A stretch of 64,000 nucleotides of DNA from Deltaproteobacteria bacterium (lineage in GTDB: Bacteria; Myxococcota_A; Polyangia; Polyangiales; Houyiibacteriaceae), in NCBI GenBank assembly GCA_017644045.1, contig JAEPMI010000002.1, forward strand, positions 259,026-323,025. Direction: 5' to 3'. The stretch's first letter is position 1; every line of letters starts with the position of its first letter. Positions 14,006-44,873 of the stretch are shown here, one piece after another. A model generated the notes under the pieces. The model was not told the origin of the DNA. It saw only the letters and a list, made by a program, of their open reading frames with translations, and did not search any database. Both the position numbers and the translations under genes were made by a program.

Positions 14006-14950
14006 GTGGCATCGCTGAAGCACTTGGTGCGTGATTCATTGGCCTGGGGCCTCGAACGCACGGGTCTGACCGGGGCGAAGAAGCGAGCGTTGACCATCGC
14101 CACCTTTCACCGGGTCCTCCCGGCCGAGCTCCGCGCGACCTATCCCTTCCCCGGGTTGGCCGTCACTCCCGAGGAGCTGGACTTCTTCCTCACGTTCTTT
14201 CGGGCTCGCTACACGTGCGGGACCCTCGCCGAGAGCTGGGACCGCTTCCGCCGCGGCGACCGCCCGGAGCGACCGCTGCTCGCGCTGACCTTCGACGACG
14301 GTCAGCAGGACAACGTCGACCATGCGCTTCCGGTGCTCCGACGACACGGTCTGAAGGCGAGCTTCTACCTGCCGACCGACCTGATCGAAGAGCGGACGCT
14401 CATCTGGCACGACCGCGTCGGCTTTGCGCTGCGAGCGATGGGCGAGTCACCCGACGCGATCGCCGAGCGCACCGAGGCGCTCAAGCCGCTCGACCCCGAG
14501 CACCGCGAGGCGGAGGTCGACGCGCTCGAACGCATCGCGGGCGCGACGCCGCCCGAGTGGGCGCGGCTGATGACGTGGGAGGGCGCCGAGCAGCTCCTCA
14601 CCGAGGGCCACGAGATCGGCTCCCACTCACTGCGCCACCCACTGCTTCCGACCTGCAGCGACACCCGCCTGCGCGCCGAGCTCGTCGAGTCGAAGGCCGC
14701 GATCGAAAAGCGTCTCGGCATCCGGGTGCAGACTTTCTGCTACCCCAACGGCGACGCCGACGAGCGAGTCGCCGCTGCGACCGCGGCCGCCGGCTACGAG
14801 TGCGCGGTCACGACGACCTGGGGGACCAACCACCCCTCCGCGCCGCCCTTCCTGCTCCGCCGCTGCGACATGCACCCGTTCCATACGCGCGACCGCCACG
14901 GCATCCTGAGCTCGGCGCAGCTGCAGTTCCGGCTCTCCAGGCAGCTCTGA
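14006..14950 (+). CDS. polysaccharide deacetylase (NodB-homology) family protein
   Basis: [28 protein letters not shown] and HSLRHP motifs. Confidence 0.85.
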
Positions 14951-15185
14951 CCCAGGCTTCCATGGTCCCGTTGTGCCCTTGTTCTCGCACAAAGGCACGG
15001 GGAGCACGGAGTTTCACAAAGGGGTCGAATGGAGGTGGTTCGAGTCAGCGCTGACCGGGTCGACGACGACGCAGCGTTTCACATCACACCCGGCGCGATT
15101 CCACCCCTTCTTCCCTTCGTGTGACTTCGTGTTCTTCGTGCCTTTGTGCGAGAACAAGAGTCCAACGGGCACCGTGAAGCCTGGG
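14951..15185. repeat. 235-bp long imperfect palindrome (MITE-like element or bidirectional terminator)
   Basis: The 49-nt termini are inverted repeats: 14951-14999 versus the reverse complement of 15137-15185, 41/49 identical by hand alignment, including a perfect 21-mer TTGTTCTCGCACAAAGGCACG. The arms keep pairing further inward. The interior is less GC-rich than the flanks. Confidence 0.75.
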
Positions 15186-15200
15186 CAGCCTGGGGCAGCG

Positions 15201-16379
15201 TCAGCGAAGGGCAGCAAGGTGCGAGACCCGACGGTCGAAGCTCTTCTCGTAGGTGTGCTCGCGCGCGAAGCGGAGCGCCTCACGCGTCCGCTCGGCGAGG
15301 ATCGAGCGCTGGTGATGCGCTTCCTCGACGCGGGCTGCGAGAGCGTCGACGTCGCCGAGCGGCGCGCGCCAGCCCGCGGCGACGCGGTCGAGGATGCCGG
15401 CCCAGGCCTCGTTGGCGAAGCCGGCGATGGGGACCCCCGCGGCCATCGTCTCGAGGTAGGTGCAGCTCGGATCACCCTGCAGGTGCGGGCAGACGAAGAG
15501 GTCGACCTGCTCCTTCACGAAGGGCACGAGCTCGCTCTGGAAGTCGAGCACGCCGAGCATCTTCACCTGGCCCTCGAGGCCGCGCTCGGCGATCTCGGCG
15601 CGCATCTGCTCGGCGTCGCGCCCGTCGCCGCAGATGCTCATCTCGAAGGGCACGCCGCGGTCGCGCAGCGCCGACCCGAGGGCCGGCAGGTGCCGGGCGC
15701 CCTTCATCGGGTCGAGGCGGCCGGTGAACGCGAGCTTCAGCGGCTCTCCCGCGGCCACGCGCTTCAGCCGTGCCTCGAGCGCTGCGTCTCCGAGCACGTC
15801 CCGGTCGCGGGTTCGGGTATCGAAGAAGAGCAGCGTGTTCGGGTTCTCGGGCGCGTAGGCCTCGTAGGTCGGCGTGCCATTGCACTGCACGCCCGCCGCC
15901 GCGCGCACGGTGCGGAGGTTGGCTCGCTCCTGGCCCGCCTCCCACTGCTTCCGGCGCACGCTCTTGAGCCAGCCCACCGGACCCGGCTCACGATCGGCCT
16001 CCGCAATTTGGTAGCGCGTGGTGAGCGTGTACTCGCTGGTGGTCGCGAAGGGGACGCCGAGCTCGCGCGCCTTCTCGGCCAAGCCGTTCTGGCGATGACC
16101 GAGGCCGCCGAGGATCACGCCGGCGTCCGCCATGCGCCGATCGAAGGCCGCGCCCTCGAAGGGCAGCACCTCGAGCCCCCAAGCGAGCTCGCGGGGATCG
16201 ACGAGGGTGTCGTCGAGGTTCTCGGTGCCGCCCGCGCGTGGCTCCATGATCACGCGAACCGTTCCCTCCCAGCGCGAGGCGAACGCCTCGACCCCCGTGT
16301 GGAACTTCCCGGTCACGTTGATGGTCCCGTCCGCACGCTGCTCGGCGTTCAGCGAAGGCAGGAGCAACAGCTCGCTCAT
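15201..16379 (-). CDS. glycosyltransferase, GT4-like
   Basis: ATG at 16379 overlaps the rmlD stop (ATGA). C-terminal GT-B pattern LKLAFTGRLDPMKG...DLFVCPHLQGDPSCTYLETMAAGVPIAG. Confidence 0.8.
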   Translation of the reverse strand: MSELLLLPSLNAEQRADGTINVTGKFHTGVEAFASRWEGTVRVIMEPRAGGTENLDDTLVDPRELAWGLEVLPFEGAAFDRRMADAGVILGGLGHRQNGLAEKARELGVPFATTSEYTLTTRYQIAEADREPGPVGWLKSVRRKQWEAGQERANLRTVRAAAGVQCNGTPTYEAYAPENPNTLLFFDTRTRDRDVLGDAALEARLKRVAAGEPLKLAFTGRLDPMKGARHLPALGSALRDRGVPFEMSICGDGRDAEQMRAEIAERGLEGQVKMLGVLDFQSELVPFVKEQVDLFVCPHLQGDPSCTYLETMAAGVPIAGFANEAWAGILDRVAAGWRAPLGDVDALAARVEEAHHQRSILAERTREALRFAREHTYEKSFDRRVSHLAALR

Positions 16380-17236
16380 ACGGGCTCCAGCCGCGCCATC
16401 ACGTCGGCGACGTTGCGCCGCCAGTCCGTCATCGACCCGACGATGGCCTCCGCGCCGCTCAGGTCGAGCACGCTGTAAGGCGGCCGCTTCGCGGGGCGCG
16501 GGAACTCGTCGGTGGTGCACTTGGCGATGGCGCACTCCGCGCCCTGCGCGTCGCGCACCGCTTCGGCGAGCCCGTGCCAGGTGCACTCGCCGCCGTCGGT
16601 CACGTGGAAGGTGCCGCGGGCGCCCTTCTGGTAGAGCGCCCAGCTGGTGCGCGCGAGGTGCTCGGCGCTCGTCGGTCGACCGCGTTGGTCGTCGACGACC
16701 TTCAGCTCGTCGCGCTCGGCGGTGAGCTTGGCCATCGTGCGCACGAAGTTCTGACCCCAGGGCGCGTAGACCCAGCTGGTCCTGACGAGCAGGTGGTCGG
16801 CCCCCGACTCGCGCAGCGCCGCCTCACCTACAGCCTTGCTGCGCCCGTAGGCGTTGACCGGCGCGATCGGCGCGTCGACCGGGTACGGCTCGGGCTCCGC
16901 GTCACCGAAGCCGCTGCCGTCGAAGACGTAGTCGGTCGAGAAGTGGATCAGGGTCGCACCGGCCTCGGCGCACCGCTTGCCGATGACGCCCACGGCCTCA
17001 CCGTTGATCTGGGTCGCGAGCGTCTCGTTCTCTTCGGCGCCGTCCACGTTGGTGTAGGCGGCGCAGCAAACCACGACGTCGGCGCCGGCCGCGGTGAAGC
17101 GAGCGAGCGAGTCGGGGTCGGCGAGATCGAGGGTGTCCATACCCACCGCCGTCACCTTCACGCCCTCGTTCTCGAAGAGCTTGGTGAAGGCCGTGCCGAC
17201 CATCCCGTCGTGACCGATGAGGATCGCGTGGGTCAT
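16376..17236 (-). CDS. rmlD: dTDP-4-dehydrorhamnose reductase
   Basis: ILIGHDGMVGTAF...CAAYTNVDGAE...STDYVFDG, typical of RmlD. Confidence 0.9.
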   Translation of the reverse strand: MTHAILIGHDGMVGTAFTKLFENEGVKVTAVGMDTLDLADPDSLARFTAAGADVVVCCAAYTNVDGAEENETLATQINGEAVGVIGKRCAEAGATLIHFSTDYVFDGSGFGDAEPEPYPVDAPIAPVNAYGRSKAVGEAALRESGADHLLVRTSWVYAPWGQNFVRTMAKLTAERDELKVVDDQRGRPTSAEHLARTSWALYQKGARGTFHVTDGGECTWHGLAEAVRDAQGAECAIAKCTTDEFPRPAKRPPYSVLDLSGAEAIVGSMTDWRRNVADVMARLEPV

Positions 17237-41122: not shown

Positions 41123-42022
41123 ATGACCAGCCGTTCCGTTCCTCAGAGCGCCCCCGTCGCGACCCTTCGTGACCTCGCCTCCCTCGCCAAGCCCCGCATC
41201 ACCCTGATGGTGGTCATCACGGCGGCAGGTGGGATGTTCCTGGCCCCAGGGGCGATCCCCCTGACGACGGCCCTGGTGATGCTGCTCACCACAGCGACCG
41301 TGGTGGCCGGCGCGAACTCGCTGAACTGCTGGCTCGAGCGCGACTCCGACCGCTTCATGCAGCGGACGATGGATCGCCCGCTGCCCGCCGGGCGGATGGA
41401 GCCGAAGGTCGCGATGGTCTTCGGTGCCTCGCTCGGCCTCCTCTCGGTGCCGGCGTTGACGCTTCTGGTGAACCCGACCACCGGTGCCCTCGGGGCGCTG
41501 GCGCTGGTCTCCTACGTCGCCGTCTACACGCCGATGAAGCAGCGCTCGTCGGTGGCGCTCCTGGTCGGTGCGATTCCGGGAGCTCTGCCCCCGCTGATGG
41601 GCTGGACCGCGACCACCGGCTCGATCGACGCGCCCGGCCTGGTCCTCTTCGGCATCCTCTTCTTCTGGCAGGTCCCGCACTTCCTCGCGATCTCGATCTA
41701 CCGCCAGAGCGAGTACGAGAAGGCTGGCCTCAAGACCCTCCCGGCAGAGCGCGGTCTGGGTGCCGCGAAGGCCCAGGCCTTCCTCTACACGGGCGCGCTC
41801 GTCGTCTGCACCGTGCTCCTCGCCTTCTTCCGCACCGCCGGCGTCATCTACCTCGCCGCGGCCGTCATCCTCGGCGCGCACTTCCTCTTCGTGGCCGCCC
41901 AGGGCTTCCGCATCGAAGAGCGCCCTGCCGTCGACAAGTGGGCCAGGAAGCTCTTCATCACGTCGCTCATCTACCTGACCGCGCTCTTCGCGGCGCTGAT
42001 GGTCGACGCCATCGTCCTCTGA
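41123..42022 (+). CDS. ctaB: protoheme IX farnesyltransferase (heme O synthase)
   Basis: UbiA-fold protein with NCWLERDSDRFMQRTMDRPLPAGR and YTPMKQRS motifs typical of CyoE/CtaB. Confidence 0.9.
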   Translation: MTSRSVPQSAPVATLRDLASLAKPRITLMVVITAAGGMFLAPGAIPLTTALVMLLTTATVVAGANSLNCWLERDSDRFMQRTMDRPLPAGRMEPKVAMVFGASLGLLSVPALTLLVNPTTGALGALALVSYVAVYTPMKQRSSVALLVGAIPGALPPLMGWTATTGSIDAPGLVLFGILFFWQVPHFLAISIYRQSEYEKAGLKTLPAERGLGAAKAQAFLYTGALVVCTVLLAFFRTAGVIYLAAAVILGAHFLFVAAQGFRIEERPAVDKWARKLFITSLIYLTALFAALMVDAIVL

Positions 42023-42024
42023 CG

Positions 42025-42579
42025 ATGCGCTGGCTCGCGCTGGTCTCGATCGCGCTGCTCGGCTGCTCGGAGCCGGAGCCGCCGCCGACCCTGCTGGAGG
42101 TGCCGGCGTTCGAGCTGACCAGCCAGGCGGGCGACGCCTTCGGCAGCGAGCAGCTCCAGGGCGAGGTGTGGATCGCCAACTTCATCTTCACCCGCTGCCC
42201 GACCATCTGTCCGCTGCTCACCAGCCAGATGAAGGGGCTCACGGACTCGCTCGCCGACACCCCCGTTCGCTTCGTCTCGTTCAGCGTGGACCCGGCGAAC
42301 GACACACCCGCGGTCCTGACCGAGTACGCCGAGCGCCACGGCGCGGACACCGCGCGCTGGACCTTTCTGACCGGCGACAACCACGCGCTCCAGGACGTCG
42401 TGGTCGAAGGCCTGCGCGTCCGCATGGGCAACGAACCGGACGAGACCGGCAACATCCTGCACGGCAGCCACTTCGTGCTGGTCGACGGGACCGGGACGAT
42501 CCGCGGCTACTACCAGTCGAACGTCGAAGGGCTCCGCGACATCGCGACGGACGCCCGGACGCTCACCGACTCGCACTGA
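42025..42579 (+). CDS. SCO1/SenC copper chaperone lipoprotein
   Basis: Lipobox ALLGC. FIFTRCPTICP CxxxC motif and the conserved H in GSHFVLVD. Confidence 0.9.
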   Translation: MRWLALVSIALLGCSEPEPPPTLLEVPAFELTSQAGDAFGSEQLQGEVWIANFIFTRCPTICPLLTSQMKGLTDSLADTPVRFVSFSVDPANDTPAVLTEYAERHGADTARWTFLTGDNHALQDVVVEGLRVRMGNEPDETGNILHGSHFVLVDGTGTIRGYYQSNVEGLRDIATDARTLTDSH

Positions 42580-42586
42580 GTCAGCA

Positions 42587-42893
42587 CCGAGCCGAACGCC
42601 GAACGTCGAGCGCCGCGTCGACGGAGTCGGTCAGGAGTCGGCCGTCGGGGCTCGGAGTCGGCCGTCGGAGTTCGGAGTCGGCCGTCGGAGTTCGGAGTCG
42701 GCCGTCGGAGTTCGGAGTCGGCCGTCGGAGTTCGGAGTCGGCCGTCGGAGTCGGCGTCGGCGTCGGCGTCGGAGTTCGGAGTCGGAGTTCGGAGTTCGGA
42801 GTCGGCCGTCGGCCGTCGGAGTCGGCCGTCGGAGTTCGGAGTTCGGAGTTCGGAGTTCGGGGTCGGAGTCGGAGTTCGGCGTTCGGCGTTCGG
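42587..42893. repeat. array A: ~40 tandem 6-7-nt units ending in TCGG (non-coding)
   Basis: Hand parse from 42621: spacers AG, CCG, AGT, CG or CGT, each followed by TCGG. The 20-mer GGAGTCGGCCGTCGGAGTTC is perfect four times at 42654-42733, with near copies on each side. Three opposite-sense CCGA units at 42587-42605 precede a short palindrome. Confidence 0.95.
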
Positions 42894-43130
42894 CTCTGGT
42901 CCGTTCAACCACTGGGGATCTGGTCTTTCGTCGTGGCCGCAACAGTCGGAGGTTCCCAATGACGATCGATTCTCTCTCGCTCGACGCTGTTTCGGCGGTC
43001 CATGAAGACGTCATGCCGATGCTTTCGCGGGTTTACTTACCCCGACCCCCGGGGCAGCCTCAGATCAGCAGGACGAGCCAGCCCCTTCACCCCTTGCCGG
43101 AGGCAAGCCGATGCGAAGCGAGGCGACACA
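42894..43130. other. unique, less GC-rich core between the two arrays
   Basis: No tandem units. Contains GGAGG-N6-ATG (42959), the palindrome CCCCGGGG (43047-43054) and the hairpin CTTGCC-GGA-GGCAAG (43093-43107). Confidence 0.8.
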
Positions 43131-43374
43131 CCGAAGTCCGACACCGACTGCCGACTGCCGAACGCCGACTGCCGAGCGCCGACGCCGAACGCCGAACGCC
43201 GACTGCCGAACTCCGACGCCGAACGCCGACGCCGAACGCCGAACGCCGACTGCCGAACTCCGACGCCGAACGCCGACTACCGAACGCCGAGACCCGACGC
43301 CGAACGCCGACGCCGAACGCCGAGACCCGACGCCGAACACCGACTACCGAACGCCGACCACCGAGAGCCGACTA
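43131..43374. repeat. array B: 36 tandem 6-7-nt units beginning with CCGA (mirror image of array A, non-coding)
   Basis: Hand parse: CCGAACG, CCGACG, CCGACTG, CCGAACT, CCGAGAC and others. There is an exact 47-nt higher-order duplication (43179-43225 = 43226-43272). The array ends at the cpoB stop codon. Confidence 0.95.
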
Positions 43375-44220
43375 AGACGTGCAGGCGCTGCGCGGCGCCT
43401 GGTTGATCTGCCGCAGCTTCCGCCGCGCATCGTCCCGCAGCGGCGATCGCCGATGCCCGCGGATCAATGCCTCCAGCGCCGCCTTCGCGTCCGTGCATGC
43501 ATGGAGCTGGAAGAACGCGTCGGCCATGTCGAAGAGCGCCTCGTCGACGGCGTCACCGCTCGCGTAGTTGGTGATCACCCGGCGGAACTCCCCGAGCGCG
43601 TTCGCCGGCCGGCGCTCGAGCAGGTAGGCCTTGCCCACCCAGTACTGCGCGTCGTCGGTCTGGTCGTCCTCGGGGTAGCGGCGGATGAACTCGCGGAAGA
43701 GCGCGCGCGCCTGAGAGTGCTCGCCGGCTTCGATCGCACGGCGCGCCGCGGCGAAGTGCTCGTCCTTCCCGTCGGGGATCTGCGAGTCGTCGACCGCCAT
43801 GTCCACGCCGGCCTTCTGAGCGAAGCGGCGGATCTGGGCGTCGAAGGCCTGCTGCTGCTCGCCCATCTGGCGCTGGGTGTTCGCGAGCTCGTTCTGCAGC
43901 TCGGCGAGGCTGCCCTCGACCGCCTGCAGCTGCTCACGCAGCTGGATCACCTCGGTGCCGAGGTCCGCGCTGTTGCGCGTGACCACGGCGGTCGCCTGCT
44001 CGAGCACTTCTTGGAGCTCGGCGACCTTGGTCTCGGCGGTCTCGAGCGCCGCGTCCATGCGCTGGCGGGTCTCGGCGATGCCGGTCTCCAGGGCTTCCAG
44101 CCGCGCGTTCTGCTCGGCCAGCTTCTCCTCGAGCGCGTCCCCCTTGGCCTTTGGGTAGCAACCGCCGAGCGCGAGCGCGGCGGTCAACCCCAGGATCCAG
44201 TGCTGCGGGCGGGCGGTCAT
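43372..44220 (-). CDS. cpoB: Tol-Pal system protein CpoB/YbgF (coiled coil + TPR)
   Basis: ATG 44220 overlaps the pal stop (ATGA). Lipobox-like ALGGC, a long coiled coil, and a C-terminal TPR-like AQYWVGKAYLL...DEALFDMADAFFQL. Confidence 0.8.
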   Translation of the reverse strand: MTARPQHWILGLTAALALGGCYPKAKGDALEEKLAEQNARLEALETGIAETRQRMDAALETAETKVAELQEVLEQATAVVTRNSADLGTEVIQLREQLQAVEGSLAELQNELANTQRQMGEQQQAFDAQIRRFAQKAGVDMAVDDSQIPDGKDEHFAAARRAIEAGEHSQARALFREFIRRYPEDDQTDDAQYWVGKAYLLERRPANALGEFRRVITNYASGDAVDEALFDMADAFFQLHACTDAKAALEALIRGHRRSPLRDDARRKLRQINQAPRSACTS

Positions 44221-44873
44221 CGCTGAGTGAACGTGACCTTGCGGTCCTGCGCCCAGCCGGACTCGTTCTCGCCCGTGGCCATCTCCTCGCCGACCGAAGA
44301 GGCGGTGAGGTTGGCGCCGTCGACCCCGAGGGAGGTCATGAACTGCTTCACCGAGCGGGCGCGGCGGTCGCCGAGCGCGAGGTTGTACTCCTCGGTGCCC
44401 TGCGGGTCGGTGTAGCCGGTGAGGTGCATGCGGGTGATGTTCTGCTCGCGCATGCAGTTCACGTTCGACTGGATCTGGTCCCGGGTGGACGACGAGAGGT
44501 CGTCGCTGTCGAACCCGAAGTAGACCGTGTCGATGGTGCAGCCCTGTGCCGCGGGCTCGTCGGGCGGCGGCAGGTCGGTCGACTGCATCGCCACGCACTG
44601 GTTGTTCTGGCACTCCTGACCATCCGGGCAGTCCCCGGAGCCGGTGCAGTAGCCCTCGATCGGATCACACCGACCGCCGCGGCACTGCTGCCCAGCGGGG
44701 CAATCGCTGTCCTCGCGGCACTGCTGGCACTGTCCATTCACGCAGAATTCCCCTGCGTGACAGTCCTCGTCATCGTTGCAGTTAGGGTACTCCGGCCCAC
44801 ACGCGACGAGCGCGACAGCCGAGAGCATCCCGAGGCCCAACCAGAGATTTCGGGGTTCCATGTTCATCCTCAA
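44217..44873 (-). CDS. pal: peptidoglycan-associated lipoprotein (OmpA-like) with N-terminal Cys-rich repeats
   Basis: Lipobox ALVAC. Three DCxxGxxCxxGxC repeats. OmpA-like VYFGFDSDDL...LTGYTDPQGTEEYNLALGDRRARSV. Confidence 0.85.
   Translation of the reverse strand: MRMNMEPRNLWLGLGMLSAVALVACGPEYPNCNDDEDCHAGEFCVNGQCQQCREDSDCPAGQQCRGGRCDPIEGYCTGSGDCPDGQECQNNQCVAMQSTDLPPPDEPAAQGCTIDTVYFGFDSDDLSSSTRDQIQSNVNCMREQNITRMHLTGYTDPQGTEEYNLALGDRRARSVKQFMTSLGVDGANLTASSVGEEMATGENESGWAQDRKVTFTQR

Follow-up and report, generated by a model that had tools for sequence, protein, structure and literature searches.

We analyzed a 235-bp long inverted repeat found in a 64,000-nt stretch of DNA from a Deltaproteobacteria bacterium (contig JAEPMI010000002.1, positions 259,026 to 323,025, assembly GCA_017644045.1), which we refer to as a whole as the window. 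The element (positions 14951 to 15185) lies between two convergent genes, for a polysaccharide deacetylase and a group-1 glycosyltransferase. It belongs to a scattered family of long hairpins, and this family is linked to cassettes in which arms of the same kind enclose a gene for a GxxExxY (PDDEXK_3) protein. The window element is probably a copy lacking an open reading frame (ORF) from a family whose full-length members carry a GxxExxY gene of about 125 aa between the arms. It is best read as a non-autonomous derivative of the GxxExxY hairpin cassette, resembling either a REPIN (a hairpin-forming doublet of repetitive extragenic palindromic, or REP, sequences) or a miniature transposable element with inverted repeats (MITE).

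A repeat search showed that the arms of the window element are 73 nt each, 79% complementary and 89 nt apart (Table 1). A first-pass annotation, made from the sequence alone, had described 49-nt termini, a perfect 21-mer within them and further pairing inward, and all of this was borne out: the outer 49 nt match at 41 of 49 positions without gaps, the perfect match is 22 nt in full, and an inner pair of 12-nt segments is 92% complementary. Each strand of the window has exactly one occurrence of the 21-mer (TTGTTCTCGCACAAAGGCACG), two in all, when 0 were expected from 100 shuffles. The RNA of the element was predicted to fold with -161 kcal/mol on the + strand (z = -12.1) and -148.5 kcal/mol on the - strand (z = -9.9), a stem far beyond that of shuffled controls on both strands, and the single-stranded DNA with -77 kcal/mol (z = -10.9). 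The GC content of the whole element is 0.60, compared with 0.70 for the window. The claim that the element has no coding capacity must be qualified: one of the six reading frames is open through the whole element. The open frame resembles no protein family, and what is conserved is the nucleotide sequence of the arms, not any reading frame. Apart from the edges that prolong the stem, the remaining ~67 nt of the centre are unconserved, unstructured (z = +0.2) and noncoding. A permissive Rfam search of positions 14500-15700 gave sub-threshold miRNA-like hairpin matches only and no family, and no rRNA match was found in the same region.

The 19-mer core of the arm was searched against one genome per species. 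The search gave 13 loci, 7 of which are in a single uncultured Sandaracinus metagenome-assembled genome (MAG), and all seven of these show the two-arm inverted-repeat layout with an arm of ~75 nt. Matching between the window and this MAG is limited to the element, so the window does not derive from it. An nhmmer profile built from 18 arms recognized both window arms, at E = 1.1e-19 and 1e-19, and nothing else in the window. The family arm consensus is (C)GGGCTTCG..CCCGATG..C-CTTGTTCTCG-CACAAAGG-CACNAAGA-CACGNAGGT-CACAAAGG, that is, reading inward, an outer segment of ~33 nt, CTTGTTCTCG, and four words of 8-10 nt of the form CACNRRG. Each window arm likewise has four inward-reading C-R-C-N-R-R-G words at a spacing of 8-10 nt, and the same four-word layout is present in 8/8 ORF-less copies and in ORF-bearing copies. 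It is the arms, not the centres, that family copies have in common. All copies are intergenic, in convergent and tandem gene contexts, and in three of them, the window copy included, an arm starts 0-8 nt past a stop codon. The ORF-less copies are uniform, with four words per arm and innermost words 80-99 nt apart; the exception is L012, where an automatic count gave 57 nt. In several MAG copies (L001, L007, L009 and L012) an extra C-rich motif (~CCCACTCCGCCCC) lies 20-45 nt outside each arm and reads inward. The window copy does not have this motif, and the full element may be longer where genes do not hem it in.

Stretches of 19-27 nt identical to the core of the arm (CTTGTTCTCGCACAAAGGCACAAAG) were also seen in Victivallis, in Lentisphaerae (Lentisphaerota), in Desulfobacteraceae (Desulfobacterota) and in mid-GC metagenome contigs (L003, L004, L008, L010/L014, L011, L016/L029/L030, L019, L021 and L024), where they form solo arms or short hairpins of ~110 nt with no GxxExxY ORF nearby. 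These matches suggest horizontal spread of the window's type of arm, which we call a flavour. One of these loci, L004 (positions 1450-2400, Victivallis vadensis), contains three copies of a composite repeat unit of ~200-590 bp in which three distinct word arrays are joined (CACGCCAAGCCGCCAAG..., CACAAAGGCACAAAGACACAAAG... and CAGTGTTCATCCGTGTCCATCTGTGG).

The link to GxxExxY came from one of the seven MAG loci, L006, in which family arms 434 nt apart enclose an ORF of 126 aa that matches GxxExxY / PDDEXK_3 (PF13366, E = 7e-39; TIGR04256, E = 1e-38). A metagenome contig (L037) carries an orthologue whose protein is 91% identical and whose 66-nt arms are of the same flavour. Longer elements with arms matching those of the window copy exist in L006 and L037, and the only ORF in them is this PD-(D/E)XK protein. 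Further GxxExxY loci were found in L038 and L039 (proteins 67-70% identical), in Opitutaceae (L040/L041) and in Caulobacterales (L045), and annotated GxxExxY genes were present in complete plasmid or chromid records of Sphingomonas (L047), Bacteroides finegoldii (L048) and Bernardetia (L049). The hosts thus range from Myxococcota-like organisms to Opitutaceae, Caulobacterales, Sphingomonas, Bacteroides and Bernardetia. In all nine independent loci examined (L006/L037, L038, L039, L040, L045, L047, L048 and L049), from four phyla, the ORF is flanked by inverted arms, and GxxExxY is the only ORF that we found between such arms.

The arms of the GxxExxY cassettes are 18-72 nt long and 82-94% complementary, the weakest case being L045, with 17 nt at 88% plus 25 nt at 72%. 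They are built from inward-reading words of the form C-R-C-N-R-A-G (CACGAAG, CACAAAG, CACAGAG, CGCAGAG and CGCGAAG), with 2-5 words per side against ~0.4 expected and nearly none in the opposite orientation. In L040/L041, L047, L048 and L049 the cassettes are wedged, co-oriented, into very short gaps between housekeeping genes; their neighbours are a gyrB/gyrA-like pair, fabD and fabG, radA and a FAD-dependent protein gene (the cassette lying downstream of radA), and ade and a mannose-1-phosphate guanylyltransferase gene. In L045 and L047 the GxxExxY ORF as annotated reads on through words of the arm, so that the protein is given an artificial extension at its N or C terminus. Downstream of the L038 cassette (positions 1751-1916) stand about five tandem copies of a 40-mer of the outer arm (CGAGGCAGGGCCCAATGGGCTCAGCGGGCGACGAGTGGTGG).

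In the GxxExxY protein the E...D...ExK set is intact and its residues E28, D68, E78 and K80 are invariant, which points to an activity under selection. The structural model is confident (predicted local distance difference test score of 96.6) and PD-(D/E)XK-like. A Foldseek search with the model returned weak, generic PD-(D/E)XK neighbours, among which Cas4 SSO0001 ranked first (E = 6e-3), and a sequence search of the PDB gave no solved relative. The family is very large, with 37,764 clusters at 50% identity (E <= 1e-3); a published survey lists its function as unknown and reports many horizontal transfers (PMC3424549). The best-scoring representatives (P0241-P0258) are proteins of ~270-295 aa with two full GxxExxY domains in tandem. 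No published description of an association between GxxExxY and hairpins was found under the names GxxExxY, PDDEXK_3 and S23p/four-helix-bundle, in a literature of which our coverage was incomplete. Dispersed palindromes accompanied by an enzyme gene are, as such, a known kind of system.

The main rival on mechanism is that GxxExxY is a passenger in a frame that is neutral to its cargo. Here the word-built arms would themselves be the mobile or self-propagating unit, spreading by fold-back synthesis, by recombination between copies or by host enzymes, perhaps as an RNA-processing "insulator"; GxxExxY would be one of several cargos, like the S23p gene of 23S rRNA intervening sequences, and the window copy would represent the basic form of the element and would not have arisen by deletion. 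At the MAG loci ORF-less copies, the form of the window copy, outnumber ORF-bearing ones by 6 to 1, and the ORF-less centres showed no trace of a decayed GxxExxY ORF, either by six-frame hmmsearch or by blastn against the interiors of full-length copies. Intervening sequences of 23S rRNA have the same layout of stem plus ORF with an unrelated ORF (PMC4990558), and a second giant word-built hairpin in the window (42580-43380, described below) has different words and no ORF. The solo arms and short hairpins of other phyla that share the core but have no GxxExxY gene close by have been counted in favor of this rival, but they fit a GxxExxY-moved family too. Against the rival are the presence of such arms at all nine GxxExxY loci, its invariant catalytic residues, and the lack of any other cargo between arms at the loci examined. 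We consider it rather unlikely that the arms spread independently of GxxExxY.

Several observations weigh against our reading of the window element as a non-autonomous derivative of the GxxExxY cassette. GxxExxY could be cargo instead of the enzyme that binds, cuts or moves the arms. No GxxExxY ORF or remnant is present in the 89-nt centre or anywhere else in the 64-kb window. The window holds a single copy of the element; neither the 21-mer with 3 mismatches allowed nor the 18-arm profile revealed a second one, as the first-pass annotation had also reported. When the 18 arms were aligned, homology faded ~33 nt outside the core without a sharp common terminus, and no target-site duplication was found at the end of any arm aligned at its outer boundary, which extends to every copy examined what had been reported for the window copy. 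The 60-90-nt centres are unrelated among copies yet uniform in length (80-99 nt between innermost words), and a burst of MITEs from one master would not give such centres. The arms are also too long and internally repetitive for a simple MITE story. Sister lineages carry different flavours at one and the same junction (see below), which a simple single insertion does not explain. Finally, no bias of G:U over A:C mismatches toward one strand, a sign of selection at the RNA level, was detected; three copies favor each strand.

Some of these observations bear equally on the possibility that the element is a classical MITE, i.e., an insertion sequence with an internal deletion whose terminal inverted repeats are recognized by a DDE or other known transposase that moves it, with GxxExxY as a passenger in some copies. 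The element does have terminal inverted repeats (73 nt) and a small size (235 bp), it is intergenic, the family is multicopy in a relative, and its insertion is polymorphic. However, transposase recognition sites are usually 15-40 nt long, unlike "inverted repeats" of 75-95 nt with internal repetition. The missing target-site duplications, the unrelated centres and the confinement of ORFs between the arms to GxxExxY speak against a classical MITE as well, and a blastn search of plasmid and phage collections found no DNA similar to the element. (A viral collection gave a single chance match to the core and no confirmed GxxExxY locus.) We regard a classical MITE as improbable.

We compared the junction between the deacetylase and glycosyltransferase genes in relatives. 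The window deacetylase matches P0001, from a "Deltaproteobacteria bacterium" MAG, at 100%, followed by graded relatives. In L031 (deacetylase 89% identical) a gap of 233 bp contains a hairpin with 53-nt arms that are 81% complementary and of another flavour (CGCAAAG / CGCCAAGG words). In L032 (84%) a decayed left arm like that of L031 is present and the contig ends within the element. The site is empty in L042 (88%), which has a 41-nt spacer between the two stop codons, and in L043 (72%) and L044 (63%), in which the 3' ends of the same two genes overlap. In L033-L036 (75% and 67%) the glycosyltransferase gene is absent from this position. Because the junction is only 0-41 nt in element-free relatives, the window element is an insertion, and the insertion is polymorphic at this junction. 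No duplication was seen when the window element was compared with the empty site of L042. The L042 spacer was considered as an excision footprint and rejected, since it resembles the outer arms no more than chance allows (6% of shuffles do as well). The window, L031, L032 and L042 represent four close lineages that are about equidistant (81-85% nucleotide identity; ~0.67 at third codon positions). The different flavours at this junction may mean that it was hit more than once or that conversion from a copy elsewhere replaced the sequence of a resident one. L038 and L032 come from one JGI sample (3300063006), and the decayed hairpin of L032 has the CCTCGCACAGAG flavour of L038.

These comparisons bear on a further alternative, in which the hairpin is a dedicated structure of the host, a bidirectional transcript end (terminator, stabilizer or RNase III site) for both genes that was selected in place, its likeness to other loci being secondary. 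The element exactly fills the convergent gap: as had been stated, it starts directly after the deacetylase stop (14950) and ends 15 nt before the glycosyltransferase stop (15201), as the ORF ends confirm. Its predicted stability is extreme on both strands, a hairpin is present at the same junction in three of the four close lineages, and its arms are ~13% from the consensus while third codon positions differ by ~32% pairwise between lineages. Nevertheless, the gene pair works without the element in L042, L043 and L044, and arms of this kind are also found between unrelated genes, where the gene orientations differ, and on both sides of a nuclease gene. The first-pass annotation had held that a single copy kept at this position in all relatives would favor a dedicated hairpin; the empty sites show otherwise. 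It had also offered a REP- or BIME (bacterial interspersed mosaic element)-like palindrome doubling as a bidirectional terminator, and neither half of this was supported. The folding of single arms does not exceed that of shuffles (z = -1.55 and -1.66), so they are not REP-like, and on both strands the stem lacks a T-run behind it (past the stem the + strand reads GCAGCCTGGGG and the - strand TCAGAGCTGCC). A scan of positions 14700-15450 found neither a sigma-70 promoter nor an intrinsic terminator. Element-specific compensatory change, described below, was absent too. Taken together, a dedicated regulatory hairpin is unlikely. The earlier proposal of a non-autonomous miniature mobile element fared better: the dispersed family (at least 7 loci in a related MAG), the presence/absence polymorphism and the longer ORF-bearing relative make it fit better than a dedicated hairpin, although target-site duplications are missing and the gene enclosed by the arms encodes GxxExxY and not a recognized transposase.

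We then asked how the two arms of an element are related, using 9 elements of the window/Sandaracinus flavour for the tests within one flavour. Arm identity was 0.76 both within and between elements (permutation p = 0.58). When the 3' arms were shuffled among elements, 67 of 500 shuffles reached the observed percentage of paired positions and 164 of 500 reached the observed number of pairs with double changes; no element-specific compensatory change was detected within this flavour. Since pairing is no better than with shuffled arms, complementarity comes from a shared consensus and not from compensatory evolution of the stem. In this flavour, the two arms of an element each copy one consensus and do not evolve as partners. 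When the flavours of L031 and L038 were added, 26 of 43 pairs were changed on both sides, a number reached in 0/500 shuffles and by no slid control. Between the 21-nt cores of the window and L031, 6 of the 7 differing positions are changed identically in both arms. Each window arm is ~12-13% off the family consensus. We infer that the arms of a new element are identical, both having been templated from one sequence, and that each later decays on its own.

Our preferred reading of the window element as a derivative of the GxxExxY cassette is compatible with the following mechanism. The element was inserted at the convergent junction and has been decaying since; new copies would have both arms templated from one sequence. 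ORF-less copies would be non-autonomous and could be moved in trans by the GxxExxY nuclease, by analogy with REPINs and their RAYTs (REP-associated tyrosine transposases) but with a PD-(D/E)XK enzyme. A read-through transcript of either flanking gene would fold into an RNA duplex of ~95 bp, and this duplex may well be a substrate of RNase III and an insulator of transcript ends, as judged by analogy with two known cases. In the intervening sequence of Coxiella, a stem-plus-ORF "selfish element," RNase III cuts the stem (PMC4990558), and in Correia elements it cuts the inverted repeats in mRNA (PMC10969869). We propose, tentatively, that GxxExxY proteins may be the nucleases of an undescribed pan-bacterial class of mobile cassettes, in which the gene sits in a hairpin loop between arms made of word arrays, copies are born as perfect palindromes, and ORF-less hairpins are the non-autonomous progeny.

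Of the known systems, REPIN/RAYT is the closest in logic and the ORF-bearing 23S rRNA intervening sequence the closest in anatomy, although the element lacks defining features of both, as well as of MITEs and of intrinsic terminators, which need the T-run that is missing here. Like REPINs, the family copies are hairpin-forming inverted doublets scattered in intergenic DNA (Bertels and Rainey 2011, PMC3116915; PMC3337134). In both systems the repeats of the ORF-less copies also stand on either side of a gene for a small protein, and the ORF-less copies outnumber this gene; the copies are old, and the variants look lineage-specific. This likeness raises the possibility that the element is a REPIN proper, a REP doublet with a spacer, mobilized by a Y1 (HUH) RAYT transposase encoded elsewhere in the genome, with old, persistent copies whose flavours look genome-specific. 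But the protein encoded between the arms is a PD-(D/E)XK GxxExxY protein and not a Y1/HUH transposase; the arms are ~75-95 nt rather than 20-40 nt, consist of four direct words of 8-10 nt and are not individually palindromic REP units; and tens of copies or fewer were seen. A REPIN in this strict sense is very improbable.

Intervening sequences of 23S rRNA with an ORF, as in Coxiella and Leptospira (PMC4990558), likewise have long complementary termini, a stem and a small ORF in the loop, and they too are regarded as selfish elements with a mobility mechanism that is unknown. They differ in lying in helix 25 or 45 of 23S rRNA, whereas the window element is between protein-coding genes; their ORF encodes an S23p four-helix-bundle protein instead of GxxExxY, the window copy being ORF-less; and their stem is cut by RNase III, where that of the window element is a predicted one. 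Correia/NEMIS (Neisseria miniature insertion sequence) and ERIC (enterobacterial repetitive intergenic consensus) MITEs share with the family an intergenic location, a length of 100-250 bp, inverted termini, co-transcription with neighbors and insertion polymorphism between strains; Correia RNA hairpins are RNase III targets, and ERIC at 3' ends affects mRNA levels (PMC10969869). In contrast to them, no TA or other target-site duplication and no Rfam match were found for the family, which has no sequence similarity to them; its arms are much longer and word-structured, its centres are unrelated, and its linked ORF is not a transposase. Residence in frame inside genes is the hallmark of Rickettsia palindromic elements. 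A single arm (TTGTTCTCGCACAAAGGCACAAAGAACACAAAG) was seen in frame within an ORF of 878 aa that resembles leucyl-tRNA synthetase and has the HVGHP and KMSKS motifs (L017, ~1283-1336 on the - strand, and L026, 5296-5330); it encodes ...PIVNVVLAQRHKEHKEEEQNEAF... and is like such an insertion. This copy is a single arm in another organism, and the window copy is intergenic.

Table 1. Coordinates of the window element, its parts and the flanking genes
Feature	Coordinates	Strand	Evidence and remarks
Whole element, ORF-less 235-bp long inverted repeat of the GxxExxY-associated hairpin family	14951..15185	none	Repeat search, folding, arm profile
Left arm	14951..15023	+	Repeat search; nhmmer match 14952-15024, E = 1.1e-19; alignment with MAG copies; inward order: outer segment (CCCAGGCTTCC..CCCGTTG), CTTGTTCTCG, 4 words
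Right arm, arm unit of ~73 nt, inverted	15113..15185	-	Repeat search; nhmmer match 15184-15112 (-), E = 1e-19
Perfect 22-mer core CTTGTTCTCGCACAAAGGCACG, left copy	14978..14999	+	Most conserved block across all family copies
Perfect 22-mer core, right copy (reverse complement)	15137..15158	-	
Left word block	14988..15021	+	CACAAAG (14988), CACGGGG (14996), CACGGAG (15005), CACAAAG (15015); 8-10 nt apart
Right word block	15115..15148	-	CTTCGTG x3 and CTTTGTG x1 (complements of CACGAAG and CACAAAG)
Central 89 nt	15024..15112	none	Edges 15019-15030 / 15098-15109 prolong the stem
Residual 15-nt spacer ahead of the glycosyltransferase stop	15186..15200		3' part like the end of the 41-nt spacer of L042 (by eye)
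Polysaccharide deacetylase (Polysacc_deac_1), stop codon abutting the element	14006..14950	+	ORF and domain match
Group-1 glycosyltransferase, maximal ORF, convergent with the deacetylase	15201..16586	-	L031 orthologue called at 392 aa

Two further observations concern the window itself. The last codons of the deacetylase gene (TCC AGG CAG CTC TGA; 14935-14950) contain CCAGGC, which can pair with GCCTGG just past the right arm (15186-15195) and so extend the predicted stem into coding sequence; the deacetylase orthologues have GCN CGN (C/A)AG at these codons. At 42580-43380, between the convergent ORFs 41938-42579 (+) and 43372-44613 (-), lies a much larger word-built hairpin. Its left arm consists of tandem TCGGAGT / GGAGTCGGCCGTCGGAGTTC units (42634-42893), its right arm of their complements (CCGAACGCCGAC..., 43139-43372), and its centre of ~235 nt contains no convincing ORF. 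For the RNA of the two strands, folding energies of -470 (z = -8) and -478 kcal/mol (z = -11) were predicted. Its words are unlike those of the 14951-15185 element, and G:U versus A:C bias gave no signal in this ~800-nt hairpin.

By itself, the window element adds one more case to the palindromic repeats of intergenic DNA, and what makes it useful is that it leads to a protein family. For annotation, such hairpins are a source of spurious ORFs (e.g., ...LAQRHKG.../...FVPLCENK...) and of broken assemblies, and they can lie in frame within genes. The arm words offer defined DNA or RNA substrates for biochemistry. If the proposed class of cassettes is real, GxxExxY cassettes would be the PD-(D/E)XK counterpart of RAYT/REPIN and would have a sibling in the 23S rRNA intervening sequences that contain an ORF. 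The link may bear on the origin and movement of these intervening sequences. The link between GxxExxY and the arms gives a first testable clue to the role of a very large protein family, suggesting a role as the nuclease of a selfish cassette bracketed by a hairpin.

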